Below are positions 18,715 to 33,873 of a stretch of 64,000 bases of DNA, piece by piece. The translations under genes and the position numbers were made by a program. This DNA is from an uncultured Faecalitalea sp. (lineage in GTDB: Bacteria; Bacillota_I; Bacilli_A; Erysipelotrichales; Erysipelotrichaceae). The DNA lies in assembly GCA_946539765.1 (NCBI GenBank), contig CAMNHO010000001.1, positions 54,773 to 118,772 of the forward strand, read 5' to 3'. Position 1 is the first letter of the stretch, and the number at the start of each line of letters is the position of its first letter. The notes beneath the pieces are model-generated. The model worked only from the letters and a program-made list of their open reading frames with translations, did not search any database and was not told the DNA's origin.

Positions 18715-19782
18715 ATGAGAAAAAAGGTTGGGATCTGTACATTATATGACAATGAGAATATTGGGAATCGTCTTCAGAACTATGCGGTACAGTTTATTCT
18801 GGAACAGATGGGCTGCCAAACTGAGACATTGCCGATCGTCCGGGTTTACGGAAAAAGGGCTAAACTGAAACAATGGCTGCAGCATCTGTGTACGTCTGCT
18901 TCTAAAAGAGAACAACAAAAACGAAAACAGAAGCGGAAAAAAGCGATTACCGCCTTTACTAAGGAGTATATTCATCTTGGTCAACCGGTGAATAAATTTG
19001 ATTTACCAAAAGATCTGAAAGATCGGTACGATTATTTTGTGACTGGAAGTGACCAGGTATGGCGGAACTGGTCGGAAAAGAAAGAAGATCTGGATTTCTA
19101 CATGCTTCGCTTTTGTGAAAGGTCACAAAGGATAGCTTTAGCCCCCAGCTTTGGCAAAGATGAGATTACAACCAACAGGGATTTGTATGTGGAAGGATTA
19201 AAAGGATTTGATCATTTGTCTGTTCGGGAACAAAGTGGACAGCGACTGATTGAACAACTGACTGGACAGCAGGCTCGGGTATTGTTGGATCCTACCATGT
19301 TCGTCGATGTGAAACAGTGGTGTGCCATTGAAAAAAGACCGGATTGGCTGCCTCAGTCAAAATATATGGTTATCTACTCGCTAAGTGAAATAGATCCATC
19401 TGTTCAAATGTATTTGAAACGATTTGAATCGGAATATATGATGATCGAATTAAAGAATCCGAAGATAGAATCGTGGTATAATACAAGACCGGATGAATTT
19501 CTGTATTTGATCCATCATGCCAGTCTGGTTGTTACGGATTCATTTCATGCGTGTGTCTTTTCCATTTTATATCATACGGATTTTATCGTATATGAAAGGC
19601 AGCTGAAGAATTCCATGTTTTCAAGAATTGAAACATTGATGAAAACATTCGGACTAACAGATCGGATCTTTACAAACATGGATCCGAATGCATGGAACCA
19701 TACGGATTTTACCGGTGTTGCATCGGTGCTTGAAAAAGAAAGAGAGAAAGCGAAGGCTTTTATTGAACGATCATTGCGTTAA
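18715..19782 (+). CDS. Polysaccharide pyruvyl transferase
   Basis: 355 aa. Has the N-terminal NIGNRLQNYA motif and C-terminal VVTDSFHACVFSILYHTDFIV, typical of the PS_pyruv_trans (WcaK/CsaB-like) family. Confidence 0.75.
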   Translation: MRKKVGICTLYDNENIGNRLQNYAVQFILEQMGCQTETLPIVRVYGKRAKLKQWLQHLCTSASKREQQKRKQKRKKAITAFTKEYIHLGQPVNKFDLPKDLKDRYDYFVTGSDQVWRNWSEKKEDLDFYMLRFCERSQRIALAPSFGKDEITTNRDLYVEGLKGFDHLSVREQSGQRLIEQLTGQQARVLLDPTMFVDVKQWCAIEKRPDWLPQSKYMVIYSLSEIDPSVQMYLKRFESEYMMIELKNPKIESWYNTRPDEFLYLIHHASLVVTDSFHACVFSILYHTDFIVYERQLKNSMFSRIETLMKTFGLTDRIFTNMDPNAWNHTDFTGVASVLEKEREKAKAFIERSLR

Positions 19783-19792
19783 TGGAGGAGCT

Positions 19793-21313
19793 ATGAAGAA
19801 TCAACGGAAAATAGGTGTCATCTTATCCTATCTGTCACAAGGAGTACATATCCTTACCGGACTGATCTATACACCGGTGATGTTGCGTCTGTTGGGACAG
19901 AGTGAATATGGATTGTATCAACTGGTCGCTTCTGTTGTATCTTATCTTTCTTTATTGAGCTTTGGTTTTTCGGCTTCGTATGTGCGCTTTTATTCACGCT
20001 ATAATGAAAAAGGAGAATCAGAAAAGATCGAGCAGTTAAATGGAATGTTTCTGAGCATCTTTCTGCTGATCGCGCTCCTCTGTATCGTATGTGGTGTTGT
20101 GATGGTTCTCAACATTACCCGTATATTTGGAAGTGGACTGACAGAAGCCGAGTATGTGAAAGCCCGTATTCTGATGTTTATATTAGTGATCAACTTATCC
20201 CTGACATTTCCTATCAGTGTGTTTGATTGTATTACATCGGCCCATGAACGTTTTTTCTTCCAAAAGCTGGTCACATTTCTTCAAAACCTGCTTAACCCGT
20301 TTTTGTGTCTTCCTTTGTTGATCCTGGGCTTTGGGTCCATCGGGATGGTGATGGTCACAACCGGATTGACGGTTTGTCGTCTTTTATTGAATATGTACTA
20401 TGTTCTGAAAAAGATGAAGATCCGTTTTTCCTTCGGAGGTTTTGATTTTACGCTGTTTAAAGAAATGTTTGTGTTTACGTTCTTTATCTTCATTAATCAG
20501 ATCATTGACCAGGTGAACTGGAGCGTGGATAAATTCTTATTAGGACGTTTGTCCGGAACCACCGCTGTTGCGATATATGGTGTCGGAGCGACCATCAATA
20601 CGATGTATCTGCAATTTTCTACTTCGATTGCGCATGTCTTTATTCCCAAGGTCAATCGTATTATTGCCCATAACGAAAAATCACGACAGGTGACCGAATT
20701 ATTCGTAAAGGTTGGAAGAGTGCAGTATTTATTGTTGGGACTGATCATTACCGGCTTTATTTTCTTTGGCAAACCGTTTATGGAGCTATGGGCCGGAAAA
20801 AGCTATGACCAAGCGTATTATGTTGCCTTATTGCTGATCCTGCCGGTTACCGTGCCTTTGATCCAGAATATCGGAATCGAGATACAAAGAGCTATGAACA
20901 AACATCAGGTACGCTCGATCGTCTATTTATTGATTGCGATCGGAAATATTTTTATGAGTATTCCACTGATCCATCAAATGGGAGCAGCCGGAGCTGCCTT
21001 AGGAACGGCCATTTCTTTAACATTAGGGAATATTCTGTTTATGAACTGGTTTTATCACAGACATTTATATATCGATATTTTGTACTTCTGGAAGAACATA
21101 GGCCAAATTACTTTATCTTTTCTCCTTCCGATCCTGTGTGGATTGCTGCTAAACCACTATTTGGATGTATACCAGCCGAAATTCTTTGTTCTGGGGATTA
21201 TGATCTACACTCTTTGTTATTGTGGATCGATCTGGCGATTCGGTATGAATGAACAGGAAAAGGATATATTTTATTCGGTCATAAGAAAACTGGGGATCAA
21301 TCATGGAAAATAA
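19793..21313 (+). CDS. Wzx-type oligosaccharide flippase (MOP superfamily), copy 2
   Basis: Start moved to the ATG at 19793 (MKNQRKIGVILSYL...), preceded by GGAGG. The track ORF start at 19688 overlaps the upstream gene. The protein is multi-pass and has an LLGQSEYGLYQL motif. Confidence 0.75.
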   Translation: MKNQRKIGVILSYLSQGVHILTGLIYTPVMLRLLGQSEYGLYQLVASVVSYLSLLSFGFSASYVRFYSRYNEKGESEKIEQLNGMFLSIFLLIALLCIVCGVVMVLNITRIFGSGLTEAEYVKARILMFILVINLSLTFPISVFDCITSAHERFFFQKLVTFLQNLLNPFLCLPLLILGFGSIGMVMVTTGLTVCRLLLNMYYVLKKMKIRFSFGGFDFTLFKEMFVFTFFIFINQIIDQVNWSVDKFLLGRLSGTTAVAIYGVGATINTMYLQFSTSIAHVFIPKVNRIIAHNEKSRQVTELFVKVGRVQYLLLGLIITGFIFFGKPFMELWAGKSYDQAYYVALLLILPVTVPLIQNIGIEIQRAMNKHQVRSIVYLLIAIGNIFMSIPLIHQMGAAGAALGTAISLTLGNILFMNWFYHRHLYIDILYFWKNIGQITLSFLLPILCGLLLNHYLDVYQPKFFVLGIMIYTLCYCGSIWRFGMNEQEKDIFYSVIRKLGINHGK

Positions 21314-22253
21314 TCATATTCGATACATTGGCTGTATCAATAAAAAAGCAGAGATTCAAAAGAAAAGCTCCTCCGGAGGTGTCTTTTATGCACTCTGTGA
21401 GAAGATCATCGAGCAAGGTGGTGTCGTTTTCGGCGCGCGTTTTGATGCACAATGGAATGTAATCCATGATTGGGCGGATACCCTGGAGGGTGTTCTTCCG
21501 TTTCTAGGCAGTAAATATGTGCAATCAAAAACAGGGGATTCATATCAAAAGGCAGAAAGCTTTTTGAAACAAGGCCGATGGGTCTTGTTCAGTGGTACAC
21601 CTTGTCAGATTGCCGGCTTAAAAGGGTATCTGAAAACAGAGTATCAGAAACTGTTATGTGTGGATTGTATTTGTCATGGTGTGCCATCGGAAAAAGTATG
21701 GCAGCAGTATCTTCATGAAATCTCTCAAAATAAGACCATTGTTGATATTTCCTTCCGTGATAAAACAGATGGGTGGAAAGATTATGCGATGCGGATCGAC
21801 TATGCGGACGGGGCACAATACCGATGTCATCATTTACAGGATCCGTATATGAAGGGGTTTATCAAAAATCTTTATTTACGTCCTTCCTGTTACCAATGTC
21901 CGTTTAAAGGAAACAACTATCACTCCGATATAACCTTGGGGGACTTGTGGAATGCACAGAAAATGTATCGTGAACATTATGATGCGATGGGCGTTTCCTT
22001 GATTCTGACAAGGACTAAAAAGGGGTGGACAATGATGGAATCTATCCGTCAACAACTAAAAACGTTTGAAGTCGATGAACGCGTTTTTGAAGGGTTTCCG
22101 TCCGCTTTACAACCAGCGGCCCGACCGAAAGAAAGCGATGTGTTTGATTCGATGCCGGGAACGTTTTGTCAAAAAGTAGAGAAACTAACGAAAGTGCCAG
22201 TGAAGAAAAAAGCCATAAGGAAATTGAAAAGGATCTTAAAAAGGGTGACATGA
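21303..22253 (+). CDS. FrhB-like (coenzyme F420 hydrogenase/dehydrogenase beta-subunit family) protein
   Basis: 316 aa. Contains SSSGGVFYAL, GTPCQIAGLK and CxCHGVPS blocks. This family often accompanies pyruvyl transferases in EPS loci. No N-terminal ferredoxin domain is visible. Confidence 0.65.
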   Translation: MENNHIRYIGCINKKAEIQKKSSSGGVFYALCEKIIEQGGVVFGARFDAQWNVIHDWADTLEGVLPFLGSKYVQSKTGDSYQKAESFLKQGRWVLFSGTPCQIAGLKGYLKTEYQKLLCVDCICHGVPSEKVWQQYLHEISQNKTIVDISFRDKTDGWKDYAMRIDYADGAQYRCHHLQDPYMKGFIKNLYLRPSCYQCPFKGNNYHSDITLGDLWNAQKMYREHYDAMGVSLILTRTKKGWTMMESIRQQLKTFEVDERVFEGFPSALQPAARPKESDVFDSMPGTFCQKVEKLTKVPVKKKAIRKLKRILKRVT

Positions 22254-22336
22254 AATCGATTTCGGCATTCATGAAAAATGTAACAGATACAAACAATGTG
22301 AAAAGGCAGACCTTTATAAAAAGTTGGAATGCGAAT

Positions 22337-22372
22337 AAAAACAGGAATGGATCAAGCGTTCCTGTTTTTGTA
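22337..22372 (+). terminator. Putative rho-independent terminator at the end of the long glycopolymer operon
   Basis: The stem aaaaacaggaa / ttcctgttttt has an 11-nt loop and is followed by a T-run. Confidence 0.5.
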
Positions 22373-22440
22373 AAGTATTTGTATGAGAAGAAACAAGTAA
22401 AAGAAAAATGTGAATAAGTCTACTTATAAAACTGGTTTTA

Positions 22441-22468
22441 TTGACTGTGGATAAGATTTAGATATAAT
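22441..22468 (+). promoter_or_regulatory. Putative sigma-A promoter for the acyltransferase gene
   Basis: TTGACT (22441-22446), a 16-nt spacer, then TATAAT (22463-22468), about 95 nt upstream of the ATG at 22565. Confidence 0.4.
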
Positions 22469-22564
22469 ACTTATAGATTAGGAAGTATTATCGATAATAA
22501 GTATTTTACACCTGTTGATATCGGAGGTTTTTATGTTAATGAAAGGATTGCGGGATATAAAAAG

Positions 22565-23572
22565 ATGGAACAAATAAGAAAACGAATTGATTGGCTGGAT
22601 ATCTGTAAAGGCCTTGCCATTCTTTTAGTAATCGTTGGGCATATCTATGCGATTCCTTCTGAATTACGTCAGTTTATTTTTTCTTTTCATATGCCGTTGT
22701 TTATGATGGTCAATGGATTTCTGATTCACAATTACAACATAAAGGACACCTTCTTCAAGTCTTTGCGATCCCTGGTTAAGCCTTATGTCATTGTATGTGT
22801 CCTGCAAGCTGTTTTGGCAGCGGCTTTTGTACAAGGATGGAAGGCTAAAGAAAGCGTACTGATCCATTGTTTGATGGATATGGTCGGAGGAATGTCTAAA
22901 ATTTCCACTGTTTTTACACAGTTCCAATCGGTATGGTTGATTTGGTTTGTTGCTTGTCTGTTTGTGACAAGAAACTTGTATGTAGCGCTCCGATCCCTCA
23001 CCCAAAAGATACCTTCCATTTTTCAATTTCTAATTATTCTGGTTGTGGCATATTTGGGGTGGTATGTTGCTCAAACCATCGGATTTTTACCATGGTCTAT
23101 AGATGTTGCCATGGTTTCGATCCTATTTCTTGTTACAGGGGACTTTCTACGGATCCATCCTTTGAATGGTAAACTGAAAATATTAACGTTGCTTGTCACT
23201 ATCTTATTATGGATGATTTGTCTGCATAATGGGATTCAAATTGAACTGGCGACGAGAAGCTATCCGTATGGAATCCTTAGTATAGTCTGCGCAATTGCAG
23301 GCAGTCTTGTTATGATGGGGATTTCCCAGGGAATCGAACGAATCCCTGTACTATCTGATTTTCTGATTTGGGCAGGGAAGAACAGTATTGTTATTCTAGC
23401 TGTACATTGTCTTGAAATGCGTTTCTTTCAATGGCAGGAATGGATATATGAACCTTTACATATTAGCCCTGGCTGGAAAACCGATTGTATCATTCACATC
23501 ACAATGATTCTTCTTATCACATGGAGCTATACTGTTATACAAAATATAATAAAACAAAGGAATTCTTTATAA
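22565..23572 (+). CDS. Acyltransferase family 3 membrane protein (probable polysaccharide O-acetyltransferase)
   Basis: 335 aa multi-pass. The N-terminal WLDICKGLAILLVIVGH motif is typical of Acyl_transf_3. Confidence 0.8.
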   Translation: MEQIRKRIDWLDICKGLAILLVIVGHIYAIPSELRQFIFSFHMPLFMMVNGFLIHNYNIKDTFFKSLRSLVKPYVIVCVLQAVLAAAFVQGWKAKESVLIHCLMDMVGGMSKISTVFTQFQSVWLIWFVACLFVTRNLYVALRSLTQKIPSIFQFLIILVVAYLGWYVAQTIGFLPWSIDVAMVSILFLVTGDFLRIHPLNGKLKILTLLVTILLWMICLHNGIQIELATRSYPYGILSIVCAIAGSLVMMGISQGIERIPVLSDFLIWAGKNSIVILAVHCLEMRFFQWQEWIYEPLHISPGWKTDCIIHITMILLITWSYTVIQNIIKQRNSL

Positions 23573-23592
23573 GTCGAATTCCTTTGTTTTAT
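23555..23592. terminator. Bidirectional hairpin terminator between convergent genes
   Basis: The stem caaaggaattc / gaattcctttg is flanked by an A-run on one side and a T-run on the other. It lies between the 22565..23572 (+) and 23589..24350 (-) gene ends. Confidence 0.5.
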
Positions 23593-24350
23593 TTATAAAG
23601 GTTCTGCATATGATTGATGATATCATGACGCAGCATGGAAATACTTCGATCTGTATCATGATCCAGGTATTGTTCCAGCTGTCGTTCATATTCTTCCTGC
23701 AACATCAGGAAGGTGGTTTCTCTCTGCGCTTTTCTTGAACTGTGGATTAAAAGGATGATCAAGATCAGCTGTAGTAGGAGAATGACAATAGAAGCGATAA
23801 AACGTAAACCTGCGTATGCATTTTGGGCACCCAGATCAATAAAGAGAGTTGAAGAAATGTAAATCATAACGGTCTGCAGCACCAAACATAACCCAAAATA
23901 TACATGTTCCCTTTTCCGATTGAAGATGTCCACTTCAAAGCCACCAATAACACCATAATAAGCGATAAACATCAAAAGCCCCTGCAATATATATACGGGC
24001 AAGGTCGGCATCGCCTGATATGACTGGTGATAAATACCGAAATAGAATCCGACAATTGGAATCTCCACCAAGGCCATCACACCGAGCTCAAAAGGAAGAG
24101 CCCATAGCTTTTTGACCATTCTTTCCTCTGGAAAGAAAAGAAAGATAGAGATTGTAAAGAAGATCATCGATGACAAGAGTCGTACAAGGGGATCGTGAAA
24201 AAGAAAGAGCGTTGAACTGTTCACGATGATCTCATAGTAAAGAAAGACCTTTACAAAGGAAACAAAACGATTCTCCGAGTATAAAAAATAATCTAGAAAA
24301 TACGCAATCGCTATATTCTGCGGCGTCAGTAAGATATAGTCATACCACAT
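23589..24350 (-). CDS. Multi-pass membrane protein ending in an HPK10/AgrC-type H-box; no ATPase domain (paralog 4 of 4)
   Basis: 253 aa with about six hydrophobic helices. A coiled segment LQEEYERQLEQY follows, then MLRHDIINHMQNLYK-stop. SD AAGAGG lies 6 nt upstream. There is a 2-nt gap to the upstream ORF. Confidence 0.65.
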   Translation of the reverse strand: MWYDYILLTPQNIAIAYFLDYFLYSENRFVSFVKVFLYYEIIVNSSTLFLFHDPLVRLLSSMIFFTISIFLFFPEERMVKKLWALPFELGVMALVEIPIVGFYFGIYHQSYQAMPTLPVYILQGLLMFIAYYGVIGGFEVDIFNRKREHVYFGLCLVLQTVMIYISSTLFIDLGAQNAYAGLRFIASIVILLLQLILIILLIHSSRKAQRETTFLMLQEEYERQLEQYLDHDTDRSISMLRHDIINHMQNLYK

Positions 24351-24352
24351 GA

Positions 24353-25111
24353 TTAACCTCTTTCTTTCCAGTAATTCAATAAATCATGACGGAGCTGACG
24401 AATCTGGTCATCTTCGTTCAAATTCAGATACGCATTCAACTGGGATTCATATTCCTTTTGCAGCATCCACAGTGTTTTTTCTTTTTGTTGGTGACGGGAA
24501 TATCGGACCAGGGAATAAAGCAGGACCGACTGCACCAAAAGAATCGAGATATAGCTAATTCCCCGTACAGTCACAAAAGCCGGCTGATCGGGCTGATCCA
24601 TAAGCAGAGTGGCGGATATATATAATAGGGCAACTTGAATAACCAGACAGAATCCAAACAGGATATGTTCTTTCCGTGACTGAAACAGGCTGACATCAAA
24701 ATAACGGATGATCCAATAGTAGATCAGGGTCATGATCAAAGCCTGCAGCGTATATAAAGCCAAGGTTGGCAGTTCCTGCTGGGTATGGTGATAGATCCCA
24801 AAGTGAAAACCAATGGTCGGAACTTCAGACAACAACATGCCGCCAATTTCAAATAACAAAGCCCATATTTTTTTGGTTGTGCTTTCTTTTGGATACAAAA
24901 GAAAGATGCAACCTGCAAATAATGCGATATTGCCTACAAACCGAAGAAGGAAAGAATAGAACAAAAAATAAGTACAGGAATTGACCAGTATTTCATAGAA
25001 CAAAAATGTCTTGATAAAGGATATCATGCGATTGTCTGAATCTAGATAAAAAGACAGAAAATACGCAATCGGCAGATTTTGTAAAGACAGTAATAAGTAT
25101 TCTTCCAACAT
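24353..25111 (-). CDS. Multi-pass membrane protein ending in an HPK10/AgrC-type H-box; no ATPase domain (paralog 3 of 4)
   Basis: 252 aa. Ends with ...LQKEYESQLNAYLNLNEDDQIRQLRHDLLNYWKERG-stop. SD AAGGAG lies 8 nt upstream. There is a 4-nt gap to the upstream ORF. Confidence 0.65.
   Translation of the reverse strand: MLEEYLLLSLQNLPIAYFLSFYLDSDNRMISFIKTFLFYEILVNSCTYFLFYSFLLRFVGNIALFAGCIFLLYPKESTTKKIWALLFEIGGMLLSEVPTIGFHFGIYHHTQQELPTLALYTLQALIMTLIYYWIIRYFDVSLFQSRKEHILFGFCLVIQVALLYISATLLMDQPDQPAFVTVRGISYISILLVQSVLLYSLVRYSRHQQKEKTLWMLQKEYESQLNAYLNLNEDDQIRQLRHDLLNYWKERG
24366..24388 (-). repeat. 23-nt tract identical to 25129..25151 (3' coding end of paralog 3)
   Basis: ttccagtaattcaataaatcatg on the + strand encodes the ...HDLLNYW end of the H-box. 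Similarity continues at reduced identity for about 100 nt. Confidence 0.8.
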
Positions 25112-25115
25112 ACGA

Positions 25116-25892
25116 TCAACTCCTTGTGTTCCAGTAATTCAATAAATCATGGCGTAATCGACGAATCTGATCCTCTTCTTTTAAATCCATATAGTCATGC
25201 AGCTGCTGCTCATATTCCTTCTGCAGCATCAGGCGTGTCTGCTGACTTTGTTCTTTTTGTTTCTGTTTAAATAATAAATAGAAGGTATACAAAAACAATA
25301 ACAGACTTGCCAATAGAAACAGGATCAACATATACATATAGGCTTTGGTATAAAACAATCGGGTGAAGATCATGGTGCCCCCATACAAGTAACAAACCTG
25401 GATGATGCAGCAGATCAGGATATATCGCATAAATGAAGTGGATATAAACTGATCGCGGTTAAACAGACGGATCAAAACTGTATATAAGGTAAAAAACAGA
25501 ACAAACTGTATCAAATAGATATAGATCGGACCAAAGGTCTCTGGTGGATTACCTTCGATGACCAGATACACCCCGGTCAGCAGCATTTCCACGATCAGGA
25601 TCACAGCGACCAATAAGAAGCTGGCCAGGATCTTTCGAAACAATCGTTCCCGGCGAAAGAACAGAAAGATGCCGGTAGTCAGTAAAACCAGATTCATGAT
25701 AAACTTTGGCAACAGCCGGTACCACAGAAGAACAGAAGCCAAAGGAATCAGAATCTGATAGAACAGAGTGATCTGGAGAAAAGCTTTCTTTCGGTTTTCT
25801 GCATATAAGAACTGGCTGAGAAAGTATGCATATAATAAATTTTGTGGAAATTGAATCAAGAAGATCCTTATAAAAAATGAACCATCCGACAT
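25116..25892 (-). CDS. Multi-pass membrane protein ending in an HPK10/AgrC-type H-box; no ATPase domain (paralog 2 of 4)
   Basis: 258 aa. Ends with ...LQKEYEQQLHDYMDLKEEDQIRRLRHDLLNYWNTRS-stop. SD GGAGGA lies 8 nt upstream. The start abuts the upstream stop with a 0-nt gap, in the same frame. Confidence 0.65.
   Translation of the reverse strand: MSDGSFFIRIFLIQFPQNLLYAYFLSQFLYAENRKKAFLQITLFYQILIPLASVLLWYRLLPKFIMNLVLLTTGIFLFFRRERLFRKILASFLLVAVILIVEMLLTGVYLVIEGNPPETFGPIYIYLIQFVLFFTLYTVLIRLFNRDQFISTSFMRYILICCIIQVCYLYGGTMIFTRLFYTKAYMYMLILFLLASLLLFLYTFYLLFKQKQKEQSQQTRLMLQKEYEQQLHDYMDLKEEDQIRRLRHDLLNYWNTRS
25129..25151 (-). repeat. 23-nt tract identical to 24366..24388 (3' coding end of paralog 2)
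   Basis: The same 23-mer was read directly in both places. Confidence 0.8.
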
Positions 25893-26681
25893 CTAAGCTT
25901 CCTCCATCCAGTGGATCAGATCATGTCTCAACAAAGCCAGCTGTTCTTCATTATCCATCTGCATATATCGTTCCAGCTGCTGTTCATACTCCTTTTCCAA
26001 AAGCGATCGTGTCCGGTCTCTTTGTTCTTTTTGTTTCTGCTTATAGATCAGATAAAAAAGAATAAAGTAGGAACCAAAGATCAGCAATGTCAATACGGCC
26101 AGTACAACAGTAAATGCCGGTGTATAACTGAAATTGGTAAAGCTTAGCGAAGCCAGAAAACTCATTATGACCTGTATACAGAAACATAACAGCAGGTATC
26201 GTTTTCCATAACTTTCAAAAAAACGGCTGCGGTCAAACACTTTTAAGACCATCTGAAACAACAGAAAGAACAATACATACTGAAACAGATAGATCAGCGG
26301 TGACTGTGGTAAAGAAGAGGAAGGATCCACGGCTTTGACAGCGCCGTTGATCAAGGTGGTGCCGCCTAGCAAAAGCACTTCACTGCCTACGATCACAACT
26401 AATTGTAAAATGACGGACAATACTTTGCGATAAGTGGTTTCTTCTTTGAAGAACAAAAATACACAGAGCAACATCAGGCATGTATTAGCAATAAACTTTA
26501 CCGGAATGATATAGAAAAACATATAGGAGACCGGGGTTGTTACGATCTGATAGAATAAGAACACCTGCAGAAAGCTCTTTTTGCGGTTTGGGGTATACAG
26601 AAACCGACTGATAAAGTAAGCATAAATCAGATTCTGTACAAAGCTGATAGCCGAAATCTCCATCAACAGATGCCAATCCAT
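25893..26681 (-). CDS. Multi-pass membrane protein ending in an HPK10/AgrC-type H-box; no ATPase domain (paralog 1 of 4)
   Basis: Start placed at the ATG at 26681-26679 (MDWHLLMEIS...). It overlaps the upstream TAA as TAATG, and SD GGAGGA lies 10 nt upstream. The protein ends LEKEYEQQLERYMQMDNEEQLALLRHDLIHWMEEA-stop. Confidence 0.65.
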   Translation of the reverse strand: MDWHLLMEISAISFVQNLIYAYFISRFLYTPNRKKSFLQVFLFYQIVTTPVSYMFFYIIPVKFIANTCLMLLCVFLFFKEETTYRKVLSVILQLVVIVGSEVLLLGGTTLINGAVKAVDPSSSLPQSPLIYLFQYVLFFLLFQMVLKVFDRSRFFESYGKRYLLLCFCIQVIMSFLASLSFTNFSYTPAFTVVLAVLTLLIFGSYFILFYLIYKQKQKEQRDRTRSLLEKEYEQQLERYMQMDNEEQLALLRHDLIHWMEEA

Positions 26682-27538
26682 TAGTTTGTTTCCTCCAGTT
26701 TCAGCGTAGCTGCACAATAGACTTTGTCCTCTTTCATCTCAATGGTAAATTCACCATGGTGCTCTTTGCAGATCTGCTGAATGATCTGCAGACCAAATCC
26801 ATGACGTTCAAAATCCTTTTTGGTGGATAAGCCAAAGACGATCTTCGGATTGGTTTTCTTGTTGTAGGCATTCTGTACACGAATTATCAGATAGTTGGCC
26901 TGTATAAAGATTTTCACCTCGATCCTTCTTTGCAGGATATGGACATTCTGGTTGGCTTCGATGGCATTATCTAACAGATTGGTCAAAACAGACATGATTG
27001 CGTAATTGGACACTGGAATGTTTTCCGGGACAATGGCCTGGATGGCATACTTGATATGCAGCTTACGCATAATCAGGGTCTTGTTGTAAAGAATGGCATC
27101 AATCACTTTATTCGGACAATACTTGATAAAAACATCGGATGCATATTCTTCAATCAGCTGATTAGCTAAAGCCCGGTAATCAGTATTTGTATCGGTTTCC
27201 TGTTGCTTGGCAATTTCAAATAGCTTTTCCCGTTACCCATCCAGATCCTTGGATGCCTGCATACTGGCTAAAATATGCTCATTCTGGATTTCCTTTTGAC
27301 GTAAAAGGATCTCTTTTTCTGCATTCTGCCAAGCCTGGTAGGATAAGGATCTAAATACCTGGTATAAAAAATAAAAAGACAGGACACCCAATGTAAAAAG
27401 AAGGATGATAAATACCAGTAAAAAGGAGCTGTCTATAAAATGCTGGGTCAAAAGTATACTGATAAAGAATAAGATCTCAATGGTGAAAAAACCGATGATG
27501 GATCTTTCATTTTTCATATAGTAAAAGAATTCCTTCAT
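26681..27538 (-). pseudogene. Small GHKL (HATPase_c_5-like) sensor kinase interrupted by an in-frame TAA; the canonical H-box His is replaced
   Basis: One continuous frame holds 2 TM helices, a coiled region ...MQASKDLDG, TAA (27233-27235), then REKLFEIAKQ...NKVIDAILYNK...LTNLLDNAIEAN...HGFGLQII (ATPase N, G1 and G2 boxes). SKD sits where the paralogs have RHD. Confidence 0.7.
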
Positions 27539-28251
27539 AATGTCTCCTCAATTTAAAAGTATGTGTCAAATAGTATTGAAAAGATTGATTCACTTTCTTT
27601 GCGTAGCTTCGAGAAATCGGAACAAGCTGATCATTGATCAATATAAAATCCGTCCGTGTATGCTCCTTGACTTTATCAAAGTTGACAATAAAGCTTTGAT
27701 GACATTGTTGGAAACTATCTGTCAGGTCAGGGAATAATTCTTCAAAAGTCAATGCGACCCGCAGTGTCTGGGTCTTTCCATGAAGCAAGCTGTATCGTTT
27801 GATTCTTTCGATACAGTAAATCGAATGAATGGGAACCCGTACGGTTTGTTTCTACGACCAGCACCTTTTTCATCTCTGAACATAAAGCCATAGCTTTATC
27901 TAACGCCGGTTTCAGGCGCAGTTCGACCTCAGGCTTAAAAATAAAATAACAGTGCTCTGTTTCATAGACATCGGTTACTTTTTCCAGATAAGCACTGATA
28001 AAGATTATGACAGCACCGGCATCCGTCTGATGGATCTGTTTGGCAATGTCGATGCCACTGGCTTCTTTATCCAAAACAATATCCAACACATAAATATTCA
28101 TCCCTTTAAACCGGGACAGCTGATCCATCATATCCTGGGCATGAATATAAGAATAGAGCTGTATCAGAGAATCCGGATACAGATTTTTGATCCGGCTTTC
28201 CAAAGCGAGATTCTGGCGTAGATCGTCTTCTAAAAGAATTATGTTGTACAT
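27507..28251 (-). pseudogene. LytTR-family response regulator with a +1 frameshift between the receiver and DNA-binding domains
   Basis: The REC domain (MYNIILLEDD...VLDIVL...) reads in one frame as far as ...KKVLVVETNRT. The LytTR domain (RVPIHSIYCIERIKRYSLLHGKTQ...CHQSFIVNFDKV...ISRSY) continues in the +1 frame. The switch must lie within about 27836-27851. Confidence 0.75.
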
Positions 28252-28519: not shown

Positions 28520-28720
28520 ATGTATCAGAACGTAATCAAAGAAATGAAGGAGAAACAAATCACGCTGGAAGACCTGGCCATGCAGCTACCTATGGATCTA
28601 GACTGTTTGAATGATAAAATTCAAGGAAAGCAGGCAATTACACTGGAGGAATGCATGGCTGTAAAAAAAGCATTAAAATCTCGGTTAGATATCGATATTT
28701 TATTTATAGAAGAAAAATAA
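28520..28720 (+). CDS. Small XRE-like helix-turn-helix protein
   Basis: 66 aa. The pattern ITLEDLAMQL...IQGKQAITLEECMAVKKAL resembles HTH_3-type regulators. SD GGAGAAG lies upstream. Confidence 0.45.
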   Translation: MYQNVIKEMKEKQITLEDLAMQLPMDLDCLNDKIQGKQAITLEECMAVKKALKSRLDIDILFIEEK

Positions 28721-28777
28721 ACCTTCTATTTAGATATTTCAGAATTGGTTTTAATTCATGAATGAAGGAGAATAAAC

Positions 28778-29413
28778 ATGAAGAAACTAATCTATGTCAT
28801 GTTGGTGGTCTGTTTACTGGTAGCTAATGCTTCCAATGTTAATGCTATTTCACCAGAAACAAATGAATATACTCAAAAGGGATACACAAAGGTCAAAGTT
28901 CCCATTCATAAGAACCGGTTTTATTTTACCAGTATGGATAAATAATCTTATTTTGAATTACCGGAGGGTGTGACCTTTGACTATTTTGAATCGACAGACC
29001 AAGGAATGGAATATCATTTTGATGTAGATATTCTATCAAAGGATATTGTGGATATCACTTTACATATTACGGATTGGGATTCGGAGGAATACTTTCCAGA
29101 GATCATGGCAGAATATCCAAAAAAATCAGATGCAGAAAGATTGATTCCGGAAGACATTCAACAGACACCGATGGGTTTGAATCAAATCGATGGCTCAGAA
29201 TCTAAGTATAAATATATGTTATCCCATATTGCACAAATGTATTATGTGCAGGAAACCTATGTTGTAGATACGAATTCTAAACACTTGTACATCATAATAG
29301 TAGAATGCCAGTATAAAGGAGATTTTGGTAGTTCGAGCTTAAGTGAAGAGGAGGGAAAGAAGCTAAATAGTTTCTGTAATCAGGTATATGACAACTGTGT
29401 TTTAAGAAAGTAA
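28778..29413 (+). pseudogene. Secreted hypothetical protein interrupted by an in-frame TAA
   Basis: The ATG at 28778 has SD AAGGAG and starts a Sec signal peptide (MKKLIYVMLVVCLLVANASNVNA). TAA at 28943-28945 is followed in the same frame by SYFELPEGVTFDYFEST..., which is the track ORF 28970..29413. Confidence 0.6.
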
Positions 29414-29457: not shown

Positions 29458-30387
29458 TTAGGGCGCTATTTTCTTTTTCTTAGCCTTTAACCATGTTTTA
29501 ATGCGTTGTTTATCAAGGGAAGACTTCATATCCGGAACATCCTTTGAATGTTCAAGGATCCAGTGCAGCACTTCCTTTTTATCTTGTCTGGAAGGATTGG
29601 ATTGACCGAAATAATAATGGACAAGGATAAGCATTTGGCGTTTCCACCAGCTTTGTATCAGCATCGGATCGGCTTTATCCATTAAATGCTCCTTGACCCA
29701 TACTCTTTCTTCGAGATTCTGGATCAGAAAGTTCTTTTCAATATGGTTGGATATATTATCAGAATGCACCCTGTAGTTACCGACAAGTTCATCCAGTATA
29801 TATACGTTGCCGAATAAAAGAGCCCTTAAATAGATGGCATAGTCATTGACCATTTCCATATGTTCCAGATCGGCTTGTTTCAGCTTATCCGCAACAAATA
29901 ACGTGGTAAAGGTGGATAATGGCTTTTTATAAGGTGCATCCATATGGAGCAGATACTCGAGGCCATCCTTATAGTCGGTAAAACCAATGGAATGAGGATA
30001 GAGCTTATCTTGTAGAACATGATAGGAATTGGCATTGGCACTCACGAACACAAGATCCTTATCTTGATTGAAGGAAAAAGCTGTTATCGCATTATGAAAG
30101 AAGCTGGGGTCGATGTAGTAGTCATCGTCATCCAGAAAGATGATATAGTCCCCCTTAGCTTTTTTAAACCCGAAATTGCGGTTATAGCCGGGGCCTTTAT
30201 TTGTATCATTACGAAAATAACGGATCCGCGGCTCTTTCAGGCGCTGGACGGCTTTTTGCGTTCCGTCGGTGGAATGATCATCGACTAGGATAATTTCCCA
30301 ATTGGTATATGTCTGCCGACGGACACTATCAATGGCTTCCAGTAACATGGATTTTCGATTGTAGGTAGGGATGACAATACTGATCAT
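29458..30387 (-). CDS. Family 2 glycosyltransferase
   Basis: 309 aa. Contains ISIVIPTYNR, VDDHSTDGT and a LDDDD motif. Confidence 0.85.
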   Translation of the reverse strand: MISIVIPTYNRKSMLLEAIDSVRRQTYTNWEIILVDDHSTDGTQKAVQRLKEPRIRYFRNDTNKGPGYNRNFGFKKAKGDYIIFLDDDDYYIDPSFFHNAITAFSFNQDKDLVFVSANANSYHVLQDKLYPHSIGFTDYKDGLEYLLHMDAPYKKPLSTFTTLFVADKLKQADLEHMEMVNDYAIYLRALLFGNVYILDELVGNYRVHSDNISNHIEKNFLIQNLEERVWVKEHLMDKADPMLIQSWWKRQMLILVHYYFGQSNPSRQDKKEVLHWILEHSKDVPDMKSSLDKQRIKTWLKAKKKKIAP

Positions 30388-31445
30388 AAGGATCCTCCTT
30401 TATACAGAGCATCTAAGTCTTTAAAATGCTCAAAGGCCTTCTGTCGGATCTTGTCAATCGAACGCAAAGAGGCGGCCTCTTTTAAGATCTTTTCATAGGT
30501 GATGTCGGACAAGGATTCCAGAGAACAGCCAGGTTGTATATGCAAGTCTTTGCACACATTTTCGGTTTTATTGGAATAGGGTATGGAAAATACTCTACAG
30601 TTATAGATCCAGCCTAAGATCATGGCATGAAAACGGGTGGCTACCATGTATTCACTGGTTCGTATCTTATCCAGGCTTTGTTCAATATCTCCATCATAAA
30701 CATGAATATCGGCCTGGCTTTCAATTGTGGTTCCCTGGATGACCTTTTGAATACATTGATCATCCTTCTGGTACTTGGAAAAGCCTAAGATACGAACGAT
30801 CCAACCTTGTTCTAAAAAAGCCAGGATCGTTGTGCGCATAGACTGTATATATGTTTCTTTATATGCTTGTAATCTTACATCATGTGTCATATCCATCAAA
30901 GAAAAACAAATGCTCTTAGGAGCTTTCTGACAAGGTGCTTCTGGCAGGGTAAAAACAAGATCTGGTGCGTAATGTATGTGACTTATGTCTGAAAACAATT
31001 GATAGGTATCCATATCTCTTACACAGACATCATCGCATAAAGAGAAGAATGTATGATAATGATCTAGGAATTCCCGGCTGGTATAAGGGCCAAAATTGAT
31101 GCCCATTATGCTTATATGCCGGCTTTTATCCAGCATCTTTCGACGATATTCATAGACTTGTTTCCAATTCTCATTTTCCATGAACATAGAACCACCTATA
31201 AAAACAGTTCCATCGCATTTCTTGAGGATCCGGTTCTGTTTACCGAAGGATGTGTCAAGCTTTTTGTCCACTTTATCTAAGAAATCGTTGGGTAGTATCG
31301 TCAGATTAGGCAGGGACTGCAACGTTTGATTGGAAAAATCGCTGACCATATAAAACTGCACGTCCGGATATCTTTGTACCAGCTGTCGGATAAATAAATC
31401 ATCACCTAAGTTGTTTTTACAATATGCTATGATCCATAGTTTCAT
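30384..31445 (-). CDS. Polysaccharide pyruvyl transferase (CsaB-like)
   Basis: 353 aa. Has N-terminal NLGDDLF and C-terminal VATRFHAMILG motifs of the PS_pyruv_trans family. Overlaps the downstream GT2 gene by 4 nt. Confidence 0.7.
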   Translation of the reverse strand: MKLWIIAYCKNNLGDDLFIRQLVQRYPDVQFYMVSDFSNQTLQSLPNLTILPNDFLDKVDKKLDTSFGKQNRILKKCDGTVFIGGSMFMENENWKQVYEYRRKMLDKSRHISIMGINFGPYTSREFLDHYHTFFSLCDDVCVRDMDTYQLFSDISHIHYAPDLVFTLPEAPCQKAPKSICFSLMDMTHDVRLQAYKETYIQSMRTTILAFLEQGWIVRILGFSKYQKDDQCIQKVIQGTTIESQADIHVYDGDIEQSLDKIRTSEYMVATRFHAMILGWIYNCRVFSIPYSNKTENVCKDLHIQPGCSLESLSDITYEKILKEAASLRSIDKIRQKAFEHFKDLDALYKGGSL

Positions 31446-31587: not shown

Positions 31588-33873
31588 TTGAATTATAGAT
31601 TGAGCTTAGGGAGGAGACCTAAGAACAACACAAATCACAAACTTTTAAAAGCACTGGCCTATCCGGCCTCTGCCTATTTTGTACTAGCTGCAGCCGGGAC
31701 GGCCGTCTATGCCGAAGAAGCGCAGCCACAGGAAATAACGGAAAGCACAATCGTCGAATCAACGGAAGAAACCGTAATTTTAGAGGATCCGGAATATATG
31801 AATACAGAACCATCCGAAGATGCTAATGAAATGACGATTGATCAAACGGATGAACAAGAAGGTGTAAAGACACAGGATTCCAGTGGTACATGCGGTGAAC
31901 AAGTGTCATGGACCTTAACAGAGGATGGTACATTGACCATTTCTGGTACTGGGGTTATGTATGATTATTCTTCGGTTAATCGTTCTCCTTTTTATTATAA
32001 TGAAACGATTACCTCTGTCATTATTGAAGACGGTGTAACCAATATCGGCAATGATATGTTTGATAATTGCTCTGAACTGCGCTCTATCACCATTGCCAAA
32101 AGTGTTACCAGTATTGGCGACAAAGCCTTTACCAGCTGTGTGGGATTAACAGACATCACCTTACCGAAGGAAATGAGGATCATAGGAGAGCACGCTTTTG
32201 ACTTATGCACCGCTTTAAAATCAATAAGGATCCCGGAAGGTGTAACGACCATCGGTCGATATGCGTTCGATAACTGTGAAGGTCTGGAAACGGTTATAAT
32301 TCCTCGAACTGTTACTTCTTTAGAAGCTGGGGCATTCTATAACTGTATCAGTTTGACCGAGATAATAATCCCCGATACGATAACATCGATACAAGCGAGC
32401 TTGTTTGCCCGTTGTGCAAGTCTGACAACTGTAAAAATTCCGGAAAATGTCACTTCGATCGGAAATATGGCATTTCAGTATTGTGACAGCCTTTCTTCGA
32501 TAACCATACCTGAAAAAGTTACCTTTATTGGAAACTATGCTTTTGGAAGTTGTCCGAACTTAACATCAATAACGATTCCGGATAACGTAATTTCCATTGG
32601 AACGTATGCGTTCAATGCATGTCCGTCTTTAAAAGAAGTTACCATTGGGAAAAAAGTACGTGTGATAGGCCGGAATGCTTTCTTTGGAAACACAGCCTTG
32701 GAGGAAGTGATCTTACCGGATAGTCTGGTCACGATTCAGCGTAATGTATTTGAATCATGTACGAATCTGAAGAAGGTTGTGATTCCTAAAAGTGTGACAA
32801 CCATACAGGCGAATGTGTTTAAGGACTGCGACCAGCTTACACTGTATGTGTATCCGGATTCTAAAGGACATCAATATGCGATAGACAACTCCATTCGTTA
32901 TGTTCTCTTTGTTTCTTTGGATAAAGAAGAGATCCTGATGCCGATTGGCAAAACGGAGACGGTTTCTTTTACAAATTTACCGGAAGGCGCCTCAATGGAA
33001 AACGCTGTCTGGACCAGTAAAGATGACACAATTGCGACCGTTTCAAACGGTATGATTACCGGTGTGTCTGCAGGAACCACAGTGATTACGGCGACTTCGC
33101 AGGATGGAGCATATATAGCTGAATGTCAGGTCAAGGTCTATTTTGAGAAATTTATTGATGTGCCACAGGACAAATGGTATCACGATGTTGTCTATGAGGC
33201 CAATGATAAAGGTATAATGACCGGACTGAAAGATACGACGTTCGGACCAAATGATCCGATGACTCGGGCAATGGTAGCGGTCGTGATGTATCGGATGGCA
33301 GGGAAACCGGAAGTGACATATCAAAAATATTTCTCTGATGTGGAAAAGGGAAAATGGTATTCGAATGCGATCACATGGGCCTATGAGAACAATGTCATCA
33401 AAGGCTATATCAATGGAAAATTCGGTGTGAAGGACAATGTCACAAGAGAGCAGCTGGCAATCATTCTAAACCGATATGTCAAATCGTTGGGATTGGTCTA
33501 TACCGCAGATTATGACCTGAGCGAATTCACAGATGCCAATAAGATTGCCTCCTATGGCGTAGAACCGTTAAAATGGACAGCGGCCAACGGAATCATGTCG
33601 GGAAGCAAGGGAATGATGGACCCGAAGGGATATGCGACCCGGGCGATGTGCGCCAAGATGTTCTTAAAGACGTTGCAGTATATACGCAATGGAGGACCGG
33701 TCAGTGATTCACAAACCGGAAAGACAAGCCTGGCTGTAACGGAAGAAAAACCAATGGTTTTAGCCCAAAAGGCAATGAAGCTGACCAATCAGAAGCTGCG
33801 GCTGGATCTGGACACAAAGACAGAAAGCGGTACTTCGTTGATAGAAGGGGCAAAGAAACGAAACATAAATTAA
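31588..33873 (+). CDS. Cell-surface protein: signal peptide, BspA-type leucine-rich repeats, a Big_2 domain and three SLH domains
   Basis: Repeated ~23-aa units (I.IP..VTSIG..AF..C..L) span about 32010-32860. A Big_2-like segment (VSAGTTVITATSQDG) follows. Three SLH units start at FIDVPQDKWY, FSDVEKGKWY and FTDANKIASY (about 33151-33680). The start codon is unresolved (TTG at 31588 or 31600). Confidence 0.8.
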   Translation: MNYRLSLGRRPKNNTNHKLLKALAYPASAYFVLAAAGTAVYAEEAQPQEITESTIVESTEETVILEDPEYMNTEPSEDANEMTIDQTDEQEGVKTQDSSGTCGEQVSWTLTEDGTLTISGTGVMYDYSSVNRSPFYYNETITSVIIEDGVTNIGNDMFDNCSELRSITIAKSVTSIGDKAFTSCVGLTDITLPKEMRIIGEHAFDLCTALKSIRIPEGVTTIGRYAFDNCEGLETVIIPRTVTSLEAGAFYNCISLTEIIIPDTITSIQASLFARCASLTTVKIPENVTSIGNMAFQYCDSLSSITIPEKVTFIGNYAFGSCPNLTSITIPDNVISIGTYAFNACPSLKEVTIGKKVRVIGRNAFFGNTALEEVILPDSLVTIQRNVFESCTNLKKVVIPKSVTTIQANVFKDCDQLTLYVYPDSKGHQYAIDNSIRYVLFVSLDKEEILMPIGKTETVSFTNLPEGASMENAVWTSKDDTIATVSNGMITGVSAGTTVITATSQDGAYIAECQVKVYFEKFIDVPQDKWYHDVVYEANDKGIMTGLKDTTFGPNDPMTRAMVAVVMYRMAGKPEVTYQKYFSDVEKGKWYSNAITWAYENNVIKGYINGKFGVKDNVTREQLAIILNRYVKSLGLVYTADYDLSEFTDANKIASYGVEPLKWTAANGIMSGSKGMMDPKGYATRAMCAKMFLKTLQYIRNGGPVSDSQTGKTSLAVTEEKPMVLAQKAMKLTNQKLRLDLDTKTESGTSLIEGAKKRNIN

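Follow-up and report, generated by a model that had tools for sequence, protein, structure and literature searches.

In a 64,000-nucleotide stretch of DNA from an uncultured Faecalitalea sp. (GenBank assembly GCA_946539765.1, contig CAMNHO010000001.1, positions 54,773 to 118,772 of the forward strand; hereafter the window), we describe a signalling locus in which the parts of an AgrC-type (HPK10-like) histidine kinase are divided between two kinds of membrane protein. The first, here called T, joins a membrane sensor to the phospho-acceptor histidine of an H-box and is present in four copies, T1 to T4, and the second, called K, carries the ATPase domain and lacks an acceptor histidine. That this T/K split is a conserved architecture in gut Erysipelotrichaceae and in some bacteria of high guanine-cytosine (GC) content is close to certain. 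With a probability of roughly 0.6, we infer that the two act as a split kinase, in which K would phosphorylate the histidine of T in trans and phosphorylated T would pass the phosphate to a LytTR-type response regulator.

The genes form an operon-like block on the minus strand, which reads 5' to 3' as a REC open reading frame (ORF), a LytTR ORF, a 101-amino-acid ORF, a HATPase_c_5 ORF and then T1 to T4. The features of the block are as follows.

25893-26681, minus strand: T1, sensor plus H-box subunit, 262 amino acids from its ATG, C-terminus LRHDLIHWMEEA
25116-25892, minus strand: T2, sensor plus H-box subunit, 258 amino acids, C-terminus LRHDLLNYWNTRS
24353-25111, minus strand: T3, sensor plus H-box subunit, 252 amino acids, C-terminus LRHDLLNYWKERG
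23589-24350, minus strand: T4, sensor plus H-box subunit, 253 amino acids, C-terminus LRHDIINHMQNLYK
26681-27538, minus strand: K, small kinase with two transmembrane helices, a pseudogene here, one 285-codon frame with an in-frame TAA at 27233-27235
27507-28251, minus strand: REC-LytTR response regulator, a pseudogene here, matching Pfam Response_reg and LytTR and AgrA-like in NCBIfam
23541-23588, minus strand: probable intrinsic terminator at the operon end, 13-bp stem AACAAAGGAATTC / GAATTCCTTTGTT, 10-nucleotide loop and T-rich tail

The original prediction, made from the DNA letters, had placed four paralogous ORFs of 252-262 amino acids on the minus strand, tightly packed and each with its own Shine-Dalgarno site, and both the coordinates and the packing were confirmed. 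The stop codon of K overlaps the ATG of T1 as TAATG, the intergenic gaps T1-T2, T2-T3 and T3-T4 are 0, 4 and 2 nucleotides, and the Shine-Dalgarno sites of the T genes are GGAGGA, GGAGGA, AAGGAG and AAGAGG. A 274-amino-acid form of T1 with a TTG start was rejected as an artefact of the ORF finder. The terminator hairpin, read directly from the sequence, follows the T4 stop codon immediately and overlaps the 3' end of a convergent acyltransferase gene; it was not listed by the consensus scanner because the loop limit of that scanner is 8 nucleotides.

Sensor proteins that end at the H-box

Pairwise identity among T1-T4 is 29-47%, and the coiled segment LQKEYExQL..Y and the box LRHD, both noticed at the outset, are common to all four. 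In each protein a polytopic membrane domain is followed by a cytoplasmic helix and an H-box of the form LRHDxxN, and the chain ends 9-11 residues past the H-box histidine, with the catalytic domain found on K instead. The absence of an ATP-binding domain, also part of the original prediction, agrees with our searches: T1-T4 had no match in Pfam or NCBIfam, and scans with PADLOC and PHROGs likewise returned no meaningful family. No match to the T fold was found in the PDB, and the T tail alone had no significant sequence match there.

Word-indexed protein searches with T, whether as a single sequence or as a profile, recovered orthologs and almost nothing else, and scans with back-translated patterns gave one locus among GTDB representative genomes and two loci in a metagenome collection. 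The family emerged when 1.84 billion cluster representatives (50%-identity clusters) were searched exhaustively with a HMMER profile; 104 proteins matched, 68 of them 230-335 amino acids long. The H-box lies near the C-terminus in 67 of these 68 T-type proteins, with a median of 17 residues after the histidine and fewer than 30 in 52 of the 67. A subgroup of about 290 amino acids from high-GC organisms has kept the second DHp helix (weak SPOB_a matches) and is without an ATPase domain. Kinases of 400-440 amino acids with HATPase_c_5, with or without SPOB_a, appear only as the weakest matches, where positions ~15-255 of the T profile cover them with expect values (E) of 1e-7 to 1e-3.

When 49 diverse T proteins are aligned, only the histidine column is invariant besides the start methionine (49/49). 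Its neighbours are almost as strongly kept: the preceding residue is arginine in 48 of 49, the following one is aspartate in 45 and glutamate in 4, and the fourth is asparagine in 48. T thereby carries the phosphatase motif H-E/D-x-x-N/T, which reads H-D-L-L-N in the window and has D or E in 49/49 and N in 48/49 across the family. A glutamate within membrane helix 4 is near-invariant (45 E and 3 D of 49; residue 102 of T2, about 25587-25589), and helix 1 of K has a polar residue in mid-membrane, glutamine or glutamate in 37 of 44 proteins (residue 21, about 27476-27478). These polar residues could form a ligand site or a contact between T and K.

Ortholog comparisons gave ratios of nonsynonymous to synonymous substitution rates (dN/dS) of 0.03-0.10 for T1-T4: 0.03-0.07 for T1 against one related strain (L002), and 0.05, 0.09 and 0.10 for T2, T3 and T4 against another (L001). 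Ratios between paralogs are uninformative because their synonymous sites are saturated. Given these values and the conserved stop close to the H-box, the short form of T is a conserved protein family under purifying selection and not a product of decay. The suspicion that the truncation was not random thus held; related genomes have the same T/K split and not full-length kinases, the stop position is conserved, and dN/dS is not near the 1 expected of neutral evolution. The T1 cluster (P0278) has nine members, eight of 262 amino acids; one member is named 'TRAP-type C4-dicarboxylate transport system permease small subunit' in a public source, a name that is unsupported.

An AlphaFold2 model of T2, with a mean predicted local distance difference test (pLDDT) score of 91.4 and a predicted template modelling (pTM) score of 0.82, has seven transmembrane helices with very short outside loops, where about six hydrophobic helices had been predicted. 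The seventh runs ~30 residues into the cytoplasm, to residue 236, and an 18-residue helix at 240-257 bears the histidine. The relation between sensor and output ends can be seen in a paralog pair at one locus (L004), in which the membrane parts are 30-60% identical and the last 39 residues have 100% protein identity and 94% nucleotide identity. Since these tails are identical as protein yet differ by 6% in nucleotides, the comparison indicates constraint on the common output end of the two paralogs rather than recent gene conversion.

The catalytic subunit and its linkage to T

In the window, K is split into a 101-amino-acid ORF at 27233-27538, with two hydrophobic helices and a coiled segment, and an in-frame ORF after the TAA at 26681-27106 (open from 27232), which contains HATPase_c_5 (Pfam E 1.7e-21). 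An intact ortholog, P0105 (285 amino acids), is 98% identical to it, and members of the family are 260-315 amino acids long. Their domain order is a first transmembrane helix, a second one continuous with DHp helix 1 and its degenerate box (LREK), DHp helix 2 and HATPase_c_5. In databases they are called 'GHKL domain-containing protein' (Amedibacillus), 'ATP-binding protein' (Thomasclavelia) or 'sensor histidine kinase' (Faecalibaculum rodentium).

All 44 K proteins compared have the same N-box and G-box residues, and outside the G1 box they have no conserved histidine. The column matched to His239 of AgrC holds E in 12, D in 11, N in 6, A in 5, Q in 4 and H in 2. In a profile alignment of K with the AgrC module 6e52, the K consensus 'l-k-e-e-i' falls on 'F-R-H-D-Y' of AgrC, and K is therefore a full DHp hairpin, with the histidine replaced (by glutamate in the window strain), followed by an ATPase domain. 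The AlphaFold2 model (pLDDT 83) has the same order, with a first transmembrane helix, a second that continues as a long helix, a loop, a short second helix and the ATPase domain. Foldseek matched this model to cytoplasmic modules of histidine kinases, among them two from AgrC, the DHp-CA module 6e52 (TM-score 0.54-0.57 on the target) and the CA domain 4bxi (TM-score 0.80).

These results refine what had been predicted for K. ATPase boxes are present, and an acceptor histidine is missing throughout the family, as stated; the register of the missing H-box is LREK, and the SKD that had been taken for its counterpart lies six residues upstream, according to the 6e52 profile alignment and to the alignment with the T hidden Markov model (HMM). 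Likewise, K does supply the catalytic domain that T lacks, and it is more than the CA fragment proposed, in that a full though histidine-less DHp hairpin is retained and the two ORFs are one 285-codon frame interrupted by TAA. The histidine in 'QNEHIL' of K was considered as a LytS-type acceptor and rejected, its column being H in 21 and Y in 17 across the family.

T and K also resemble each other. Alignments of the T HMM to K place the N-terminus of K with the C-terminus of T (best E 1.3e-9, at the Thomasclavelia locus), and an hhalign comparison of the two profiles aligned only a transmembrane stretch, with 15% probability; the case for relatedness of these two ends is made by such weaker HMM matches together with the AgrC alignment. 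The distance from membrane to histidine in T (median 38 residues) is close to that from membrane to pseudo-H-box in K (median 39). Each looks like a degenerate copy of a single ancestral full-length kinase, and the two are complementary.

Linkage was counted over loci with enough flanking sequence, found either through T or through K. All 12 independent loci have T beside K, in either gene order, and T, K and the response regulator (RR) stand together in 11; the stop and start codons of T and K often overlap. Loci with T and K span 26%-62% GC and hold 1, 2 or 4 copies of T, and the lineages that carry them (Thomasclavelia, Faecalibaculum, Amedibacillus, Merdibacter) come from human and animal guts. 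The gene orders outside the window are as follows.

L003, Merdibacter: T-K with a ATGCGTAG overlap, no RR called adjacent; found through T
L004: RR-K-T-T; found through T
L005: RR-K-T; found through T
L008: RR-K-T-T; found through T
L016: RR, then a 632-amino-acid T-K fusion; found through T
L017: RR-T-K; found through T
L009/L010: RR-K-T1-T2 and onward; found through K
L011/L012: RR-T-[insertion sequence]-K; found through K
L013, Amedibacillus: RR-K-T; found through K
L014, Thomasclavelia: RR-T-K; found through K
L015, Faecalibaculum: RR-K-T and a T-like copy without H-box; found through K

The natural fusion, P0081 (L016, 5001-6899; GCA_029076695.1, 62% GC), lies beside a LytTR regulator and consists of a T-type part with a second DHp helix, a low-complexity linker and a K-type part that has its own two membrane helices. 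The insertion sequence genes between T and K (DDE_Tnp_IS240, rve) occupy 5337-7783 in L011 and 5452-6714 in L012, and the T-like ORF of L015 (2574-3251) comprises the membrane region only, without cytoplasmic helix or H-box. No genes for AgrB/AgrD-type peptide signals were called or visible in the window, L004, L005, L008 or L013-L017.

A proposed mechanism and its alternatives

In 8 loci the orthologous regulators invariantly have D9 of the acidic pocket, the acceptor aspartate D57 and K106. With so canonical a receiver they should need a phosphohistidine donor, and T is the sole conserved source of histidine in the module. We propose that T has retained the sensor, the juxtamembrane helix and the H-box histidine of the putative ancestor and lost DHp helix 2 and the ATPase domain, and that K would have retained two membrane helices, the DHp hairpin with its histidine replaced and an intact ATPase domain. 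T and K would lie side by side in the membrane, paired through parallel juxtamembrane helices, which would put the histidine of T at the place of K's own. The ATPase domain of K would then phosphorylate T in trans, and phosphorylated T would donate its phosphoryl group to the regulator at Asp57; with its H-D-x-x-N motif, free T may dephosphorylate the regulator as well. Where there are several T per K, four in this case, differently tuned sensors would draw on the same catalytic subunit and the same regulator, perhaps in competition. The proposed mechanism mirrors the logic of AgrC itself, which George Cisar and colleagues reportedly found in 2009 to trans-autophosphorylate within dimers, mutants without the histidine and mutants without the CA domain complementing each other.

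A fuller version of this split-kinase reading is tentative, and we hold it to be rather less likely than the simple one. It would have the locus encode a combinatorial receptor kinase, whose histidine-bearing sensors form asymmetric heterodimers with a shared histidine-less catalytic subunit and compete for it, so that signals are integrated or chosen through one regulator and free sensors acting as phosphatases give switch-like behaviour; its origin would be the duplication of an AgrC-type kinase followed by complementary loss.

Several observations weigh against a split kinase. The T proteins of Erysipelotrichaceae are without DHp helix 2, so the core of a T:K pair would be an unusual, three-helix one, and the H-box helix of T ends 9-20 residues past the histidine, which would make for an unusual regulator docking site. 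In the monomer model of T2 a three-residue break separates the juxtamembrane and H-box helices, leaving the orientation of the H-box uncertain. The matching distances from membrane to histidine are equally expected from common ancestry alone. A few K proteins keep a histidine at or beside the box (IKHD in P0145, KHR in P0110), and one T paralog (L008, 6973-7959) has LRRD in place of LRHD and has thus lost its histidine. Finally, with K and the regulator being pseudogenes in the window strain, the four T genes cannot work there by the proposed mechanism.

The last point had been anticipated in the original prediction, which cautioned that the regulator and kinase looked inactivated. Both are indeed broken in the window and intact on two contigs of sibling strains (L009 and L010, ~99% identical), which encode a 236-amino-acid regulator and the 285-amino-acid K, P0105. 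The REC (27742-28251) and LytTR (27507-27788) parts of the window regulator are in different frames; compared with the intact orthologs the gene has lost 8 bp near 27847/27848, and at 27549-27551 its stop codon TAG has become TTG. The nonsense codon of K at 27233-27235 is TTA in the sibling strains and replaces the leucine of LREK. Sequencing error was considered as a source of these defects and is thought unlikely because there are three independent changes, one of them an 8-bp deletion. With disabling mutations in both K and the regulator, the signalling circuit is probably dead in the window strain and its four T genes orphaned.

We lean towards regarding the locus in the window as a decaying one whose T genes are now functionless relics of a family that is itself real. 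This account is favoured by the clustering of the deletion, the lost stop and the nonsense codon within 750 bp that are otherwise ~99% identical to the siblings, and by the placement of all three nonsynonymous differences between the T1 genes of the window and L009 on the window branch. Against it, all four T frames are intact with ribosome-binding sites, and a K-like kinase elsewhere in the genome might serve T. The branch numbers, 3 nonsynonymous and 2 synonymous changes in T1 as inferred from pairwise counts with L002 as outgroup and L009 as sibling, are too few to judge or to establish relaxed selection. The account concerns the window strain only and is compatible with a split kinase in the family.

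For the family as a whole, T proteins might instead be signal-controlled phosphatases or anti-kinases that use the H-box helix to bind the regulator or K and reduce the amount of phosphorylated regulator, with another kinase or acetyl phosphate as donor. The invariance of the T histidine (49/49) counts against this, as in the phosphatase reaction of HisKA proteins the histidine is less critical than the residues next to it. Moreover, K is without a conserved histidine, so the module would be left without a phosphodonor although its receiver is canonical, and there would be no role for an ATPase domain that is conserved, apparently active, always adjacent to T and sometimes fused to it. What speaks for such a function is that T is without DHp helix 2, that paralogs without the histidine persist (the LRRD copy of L008 and the membrane-only copy of L015), and that H-D-x-x-N is the phosphatase signature described for HisKA-only proteins (PMC3591291). 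We consider it unlikely.

Less probable still is that T proteins are accessory membrane sensors that modulate K only allosterically, in the manner of the accessory proteins of intramembrane-sensing kinases, while K signals independently of the histidine of T, perhaps by way of a non-canonical acceptor residue in K itself. The minimal layout of K, with two transmembrane helices, is typical of intramembrane-sensing kinases; BceS of the BceAB-S complex is among its Foldseek matches, and column 88 of K is histidine or tyrosine in 38 of 44 proteins. That column is not conserved as histidine (21 H, 17 Y), though, the K residue on His239 of AgrC is acidic or an amide, and the invariant R-H-D-x-x-N of T would go unexplained.

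That assembly errors, frameshifts or gene-calling errors have broken ordinary full-length kinases into these short ORFs, an idea to which the true disruption of the regulator and K in the window might lend some colour, is extremely improbable, because the stop position is kept in 67 representatives of separate 50%-identity clusters from 26% to 62% GC, the ortholog dN/dS is 0.03-0.10, and T intergenic gaps of 0-4 nucleotides leave no room for remnants of an ATPase domain.

Genomic setting and comparison with known systems

The signalling locus lies inside a surface-polysaccharide cluster (window 18715-23572 and 29458-31445), where it is flanked by genes for two polysaccharide pyruvyl transferases, a Polysacc_synt flippase, an FrhB/FdhB-like protein, an Acyl_transf_3 acyltransferase and a family-2 glycosyltransferase. 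The GC fraction dips to 0.35-0.39 between 22 and 30 kb of the window. Downstream of T4, strain L001 has genes other than those of the window (Peptidase_C69, ACT, acetyltransferases), and the synonymous divergence (dS) from the window climbs from 0.22 at T1 to 0.69 at T4; together these suggest recombination at the T4 end of the locus. Divergent from the regulator, on the plus strand at 28520-29413, are three small ORFs, an arrangement also present in L009. One encodes a 66-amino-acid Xre-like protein (phrog_3 repressor, E 6e-5), another a 55-amino-acid protein with a signal-peptide-like N-terminus and the remaining one a 147-amino-acid protein with no family match. Further along, at 31588-33873, lies the gene for a large surface protein that combines BspA-type leucine-rich repeats with a Big_2 domain and three SLH domains.

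Histidine kinases are regarded as enzymes of a single chain that form homodimers, and the only biochemically studied split case that we found is a soluble chemotaxis pair, CheA3/CheA4 (PMC3591291). If T and K are a natural split receptor kinase, they would offer a system in which to study trans-phosphorylation and asymmetry in the AgrC class, to test the theoretical prediction that split kinases respond in an ultrasensitive or bistable way, and to explore how expansion of the sensor gene alone can connect several inputs to a single output. There is a consequence for annotation as well: T proteins are unnamed or misnamed and K is labelled 'sensor histidine kinase' though it is without an acceptor histidine, so that counts of two-component systems in gut Erysipelotrichaceae are misleading.

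The closest relatives are the AgrC/HPK10 kinases with their LytTR regulators. The T profile reaches full-length HATPase_c_5 kinases (with or without SPOB_a), the T H-box reads R-H-D-x-x-N, both the profile and the model of K find their match in the DHp-CA module and CA domain of AgrC, and the adjoining REC-LytTR regulator resembles AgrA. Unlike in AgrC, the histidine and the ATPase domain are here on separate polypeptides, K has its own anchor of two transmembrane helices and a histidine-less DHp, and the T proteins of Erysipelotrichaceae are without DHp helix 2; there are up to four sensors per catalytic subunit, and no AgrB/AgrD genes were called at the loci.

The concept of a split kinase has a precedent. 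CheA3/CheA4 of Rhodobacter sphaeroides is an experimentally established, functional split histidine kinase, and bifunctional split kinases could also exist among HisKA-only proteins that have an H-E/D-x-x-N/T motif (PMC3591291). Like these, T is a histidine protein without a catalytic domain and with the phosphatase motif, and K a catalytic protein without the histidine. Of the features that mark a split kinase in the sense of that study, complementary histidine-bearing and catalytic proteins and a conserved linkage or fusion between them are found in T and K, and a physical complex with trans-phosphorylation is predicted. CheA, though, is soluble, of the Hpt type (P1) and coupled to chemoreceptors, whereas T and K are both AgrC-type membrane proteins, and T combines the roles of histidine protein and sensor and can be encoded in tandem copies.

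Two further systems share part of the design. In chemoreceptor arrays that feed one CheA, many interchangeable membrane sensors likewise serve one catalytic kinase, but the histidine of chemotaxis is on the kinase and not on the receptor, and there is no sequence relationship. Intramembrane-sensing kinases with accessory membrane partners (BceS-BceAB, LiaS-LiaF, SaeS-SaePQ) resemble K in its minimal layout, two transmembrane helices and no ectodomain, and in that K would rely on another membrane protein for its input; unlike K, they retain an acceptor histidine, and their partners are without an H-box.

The original prediction knew of no described system with one catalytic module and an array of sensor and acceptor modules. 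This stands for the AgrC class, as our literature searches found no split kinase of the AgrC/LytTR type described, no histidine-bearing sensor with a separate membrane-anchored ATPase and no tandem sensor arrays per catalytic subunit; it does not stand for split kinases in general, which are known as a concept and from CheA3/CheA4 (PMC3591291). What is apparently undescribed is the split of the AgrC class, while the AgrC/HPK10-like parts from which T and K are made and the idea of dividing a kinase between two proteins are known.

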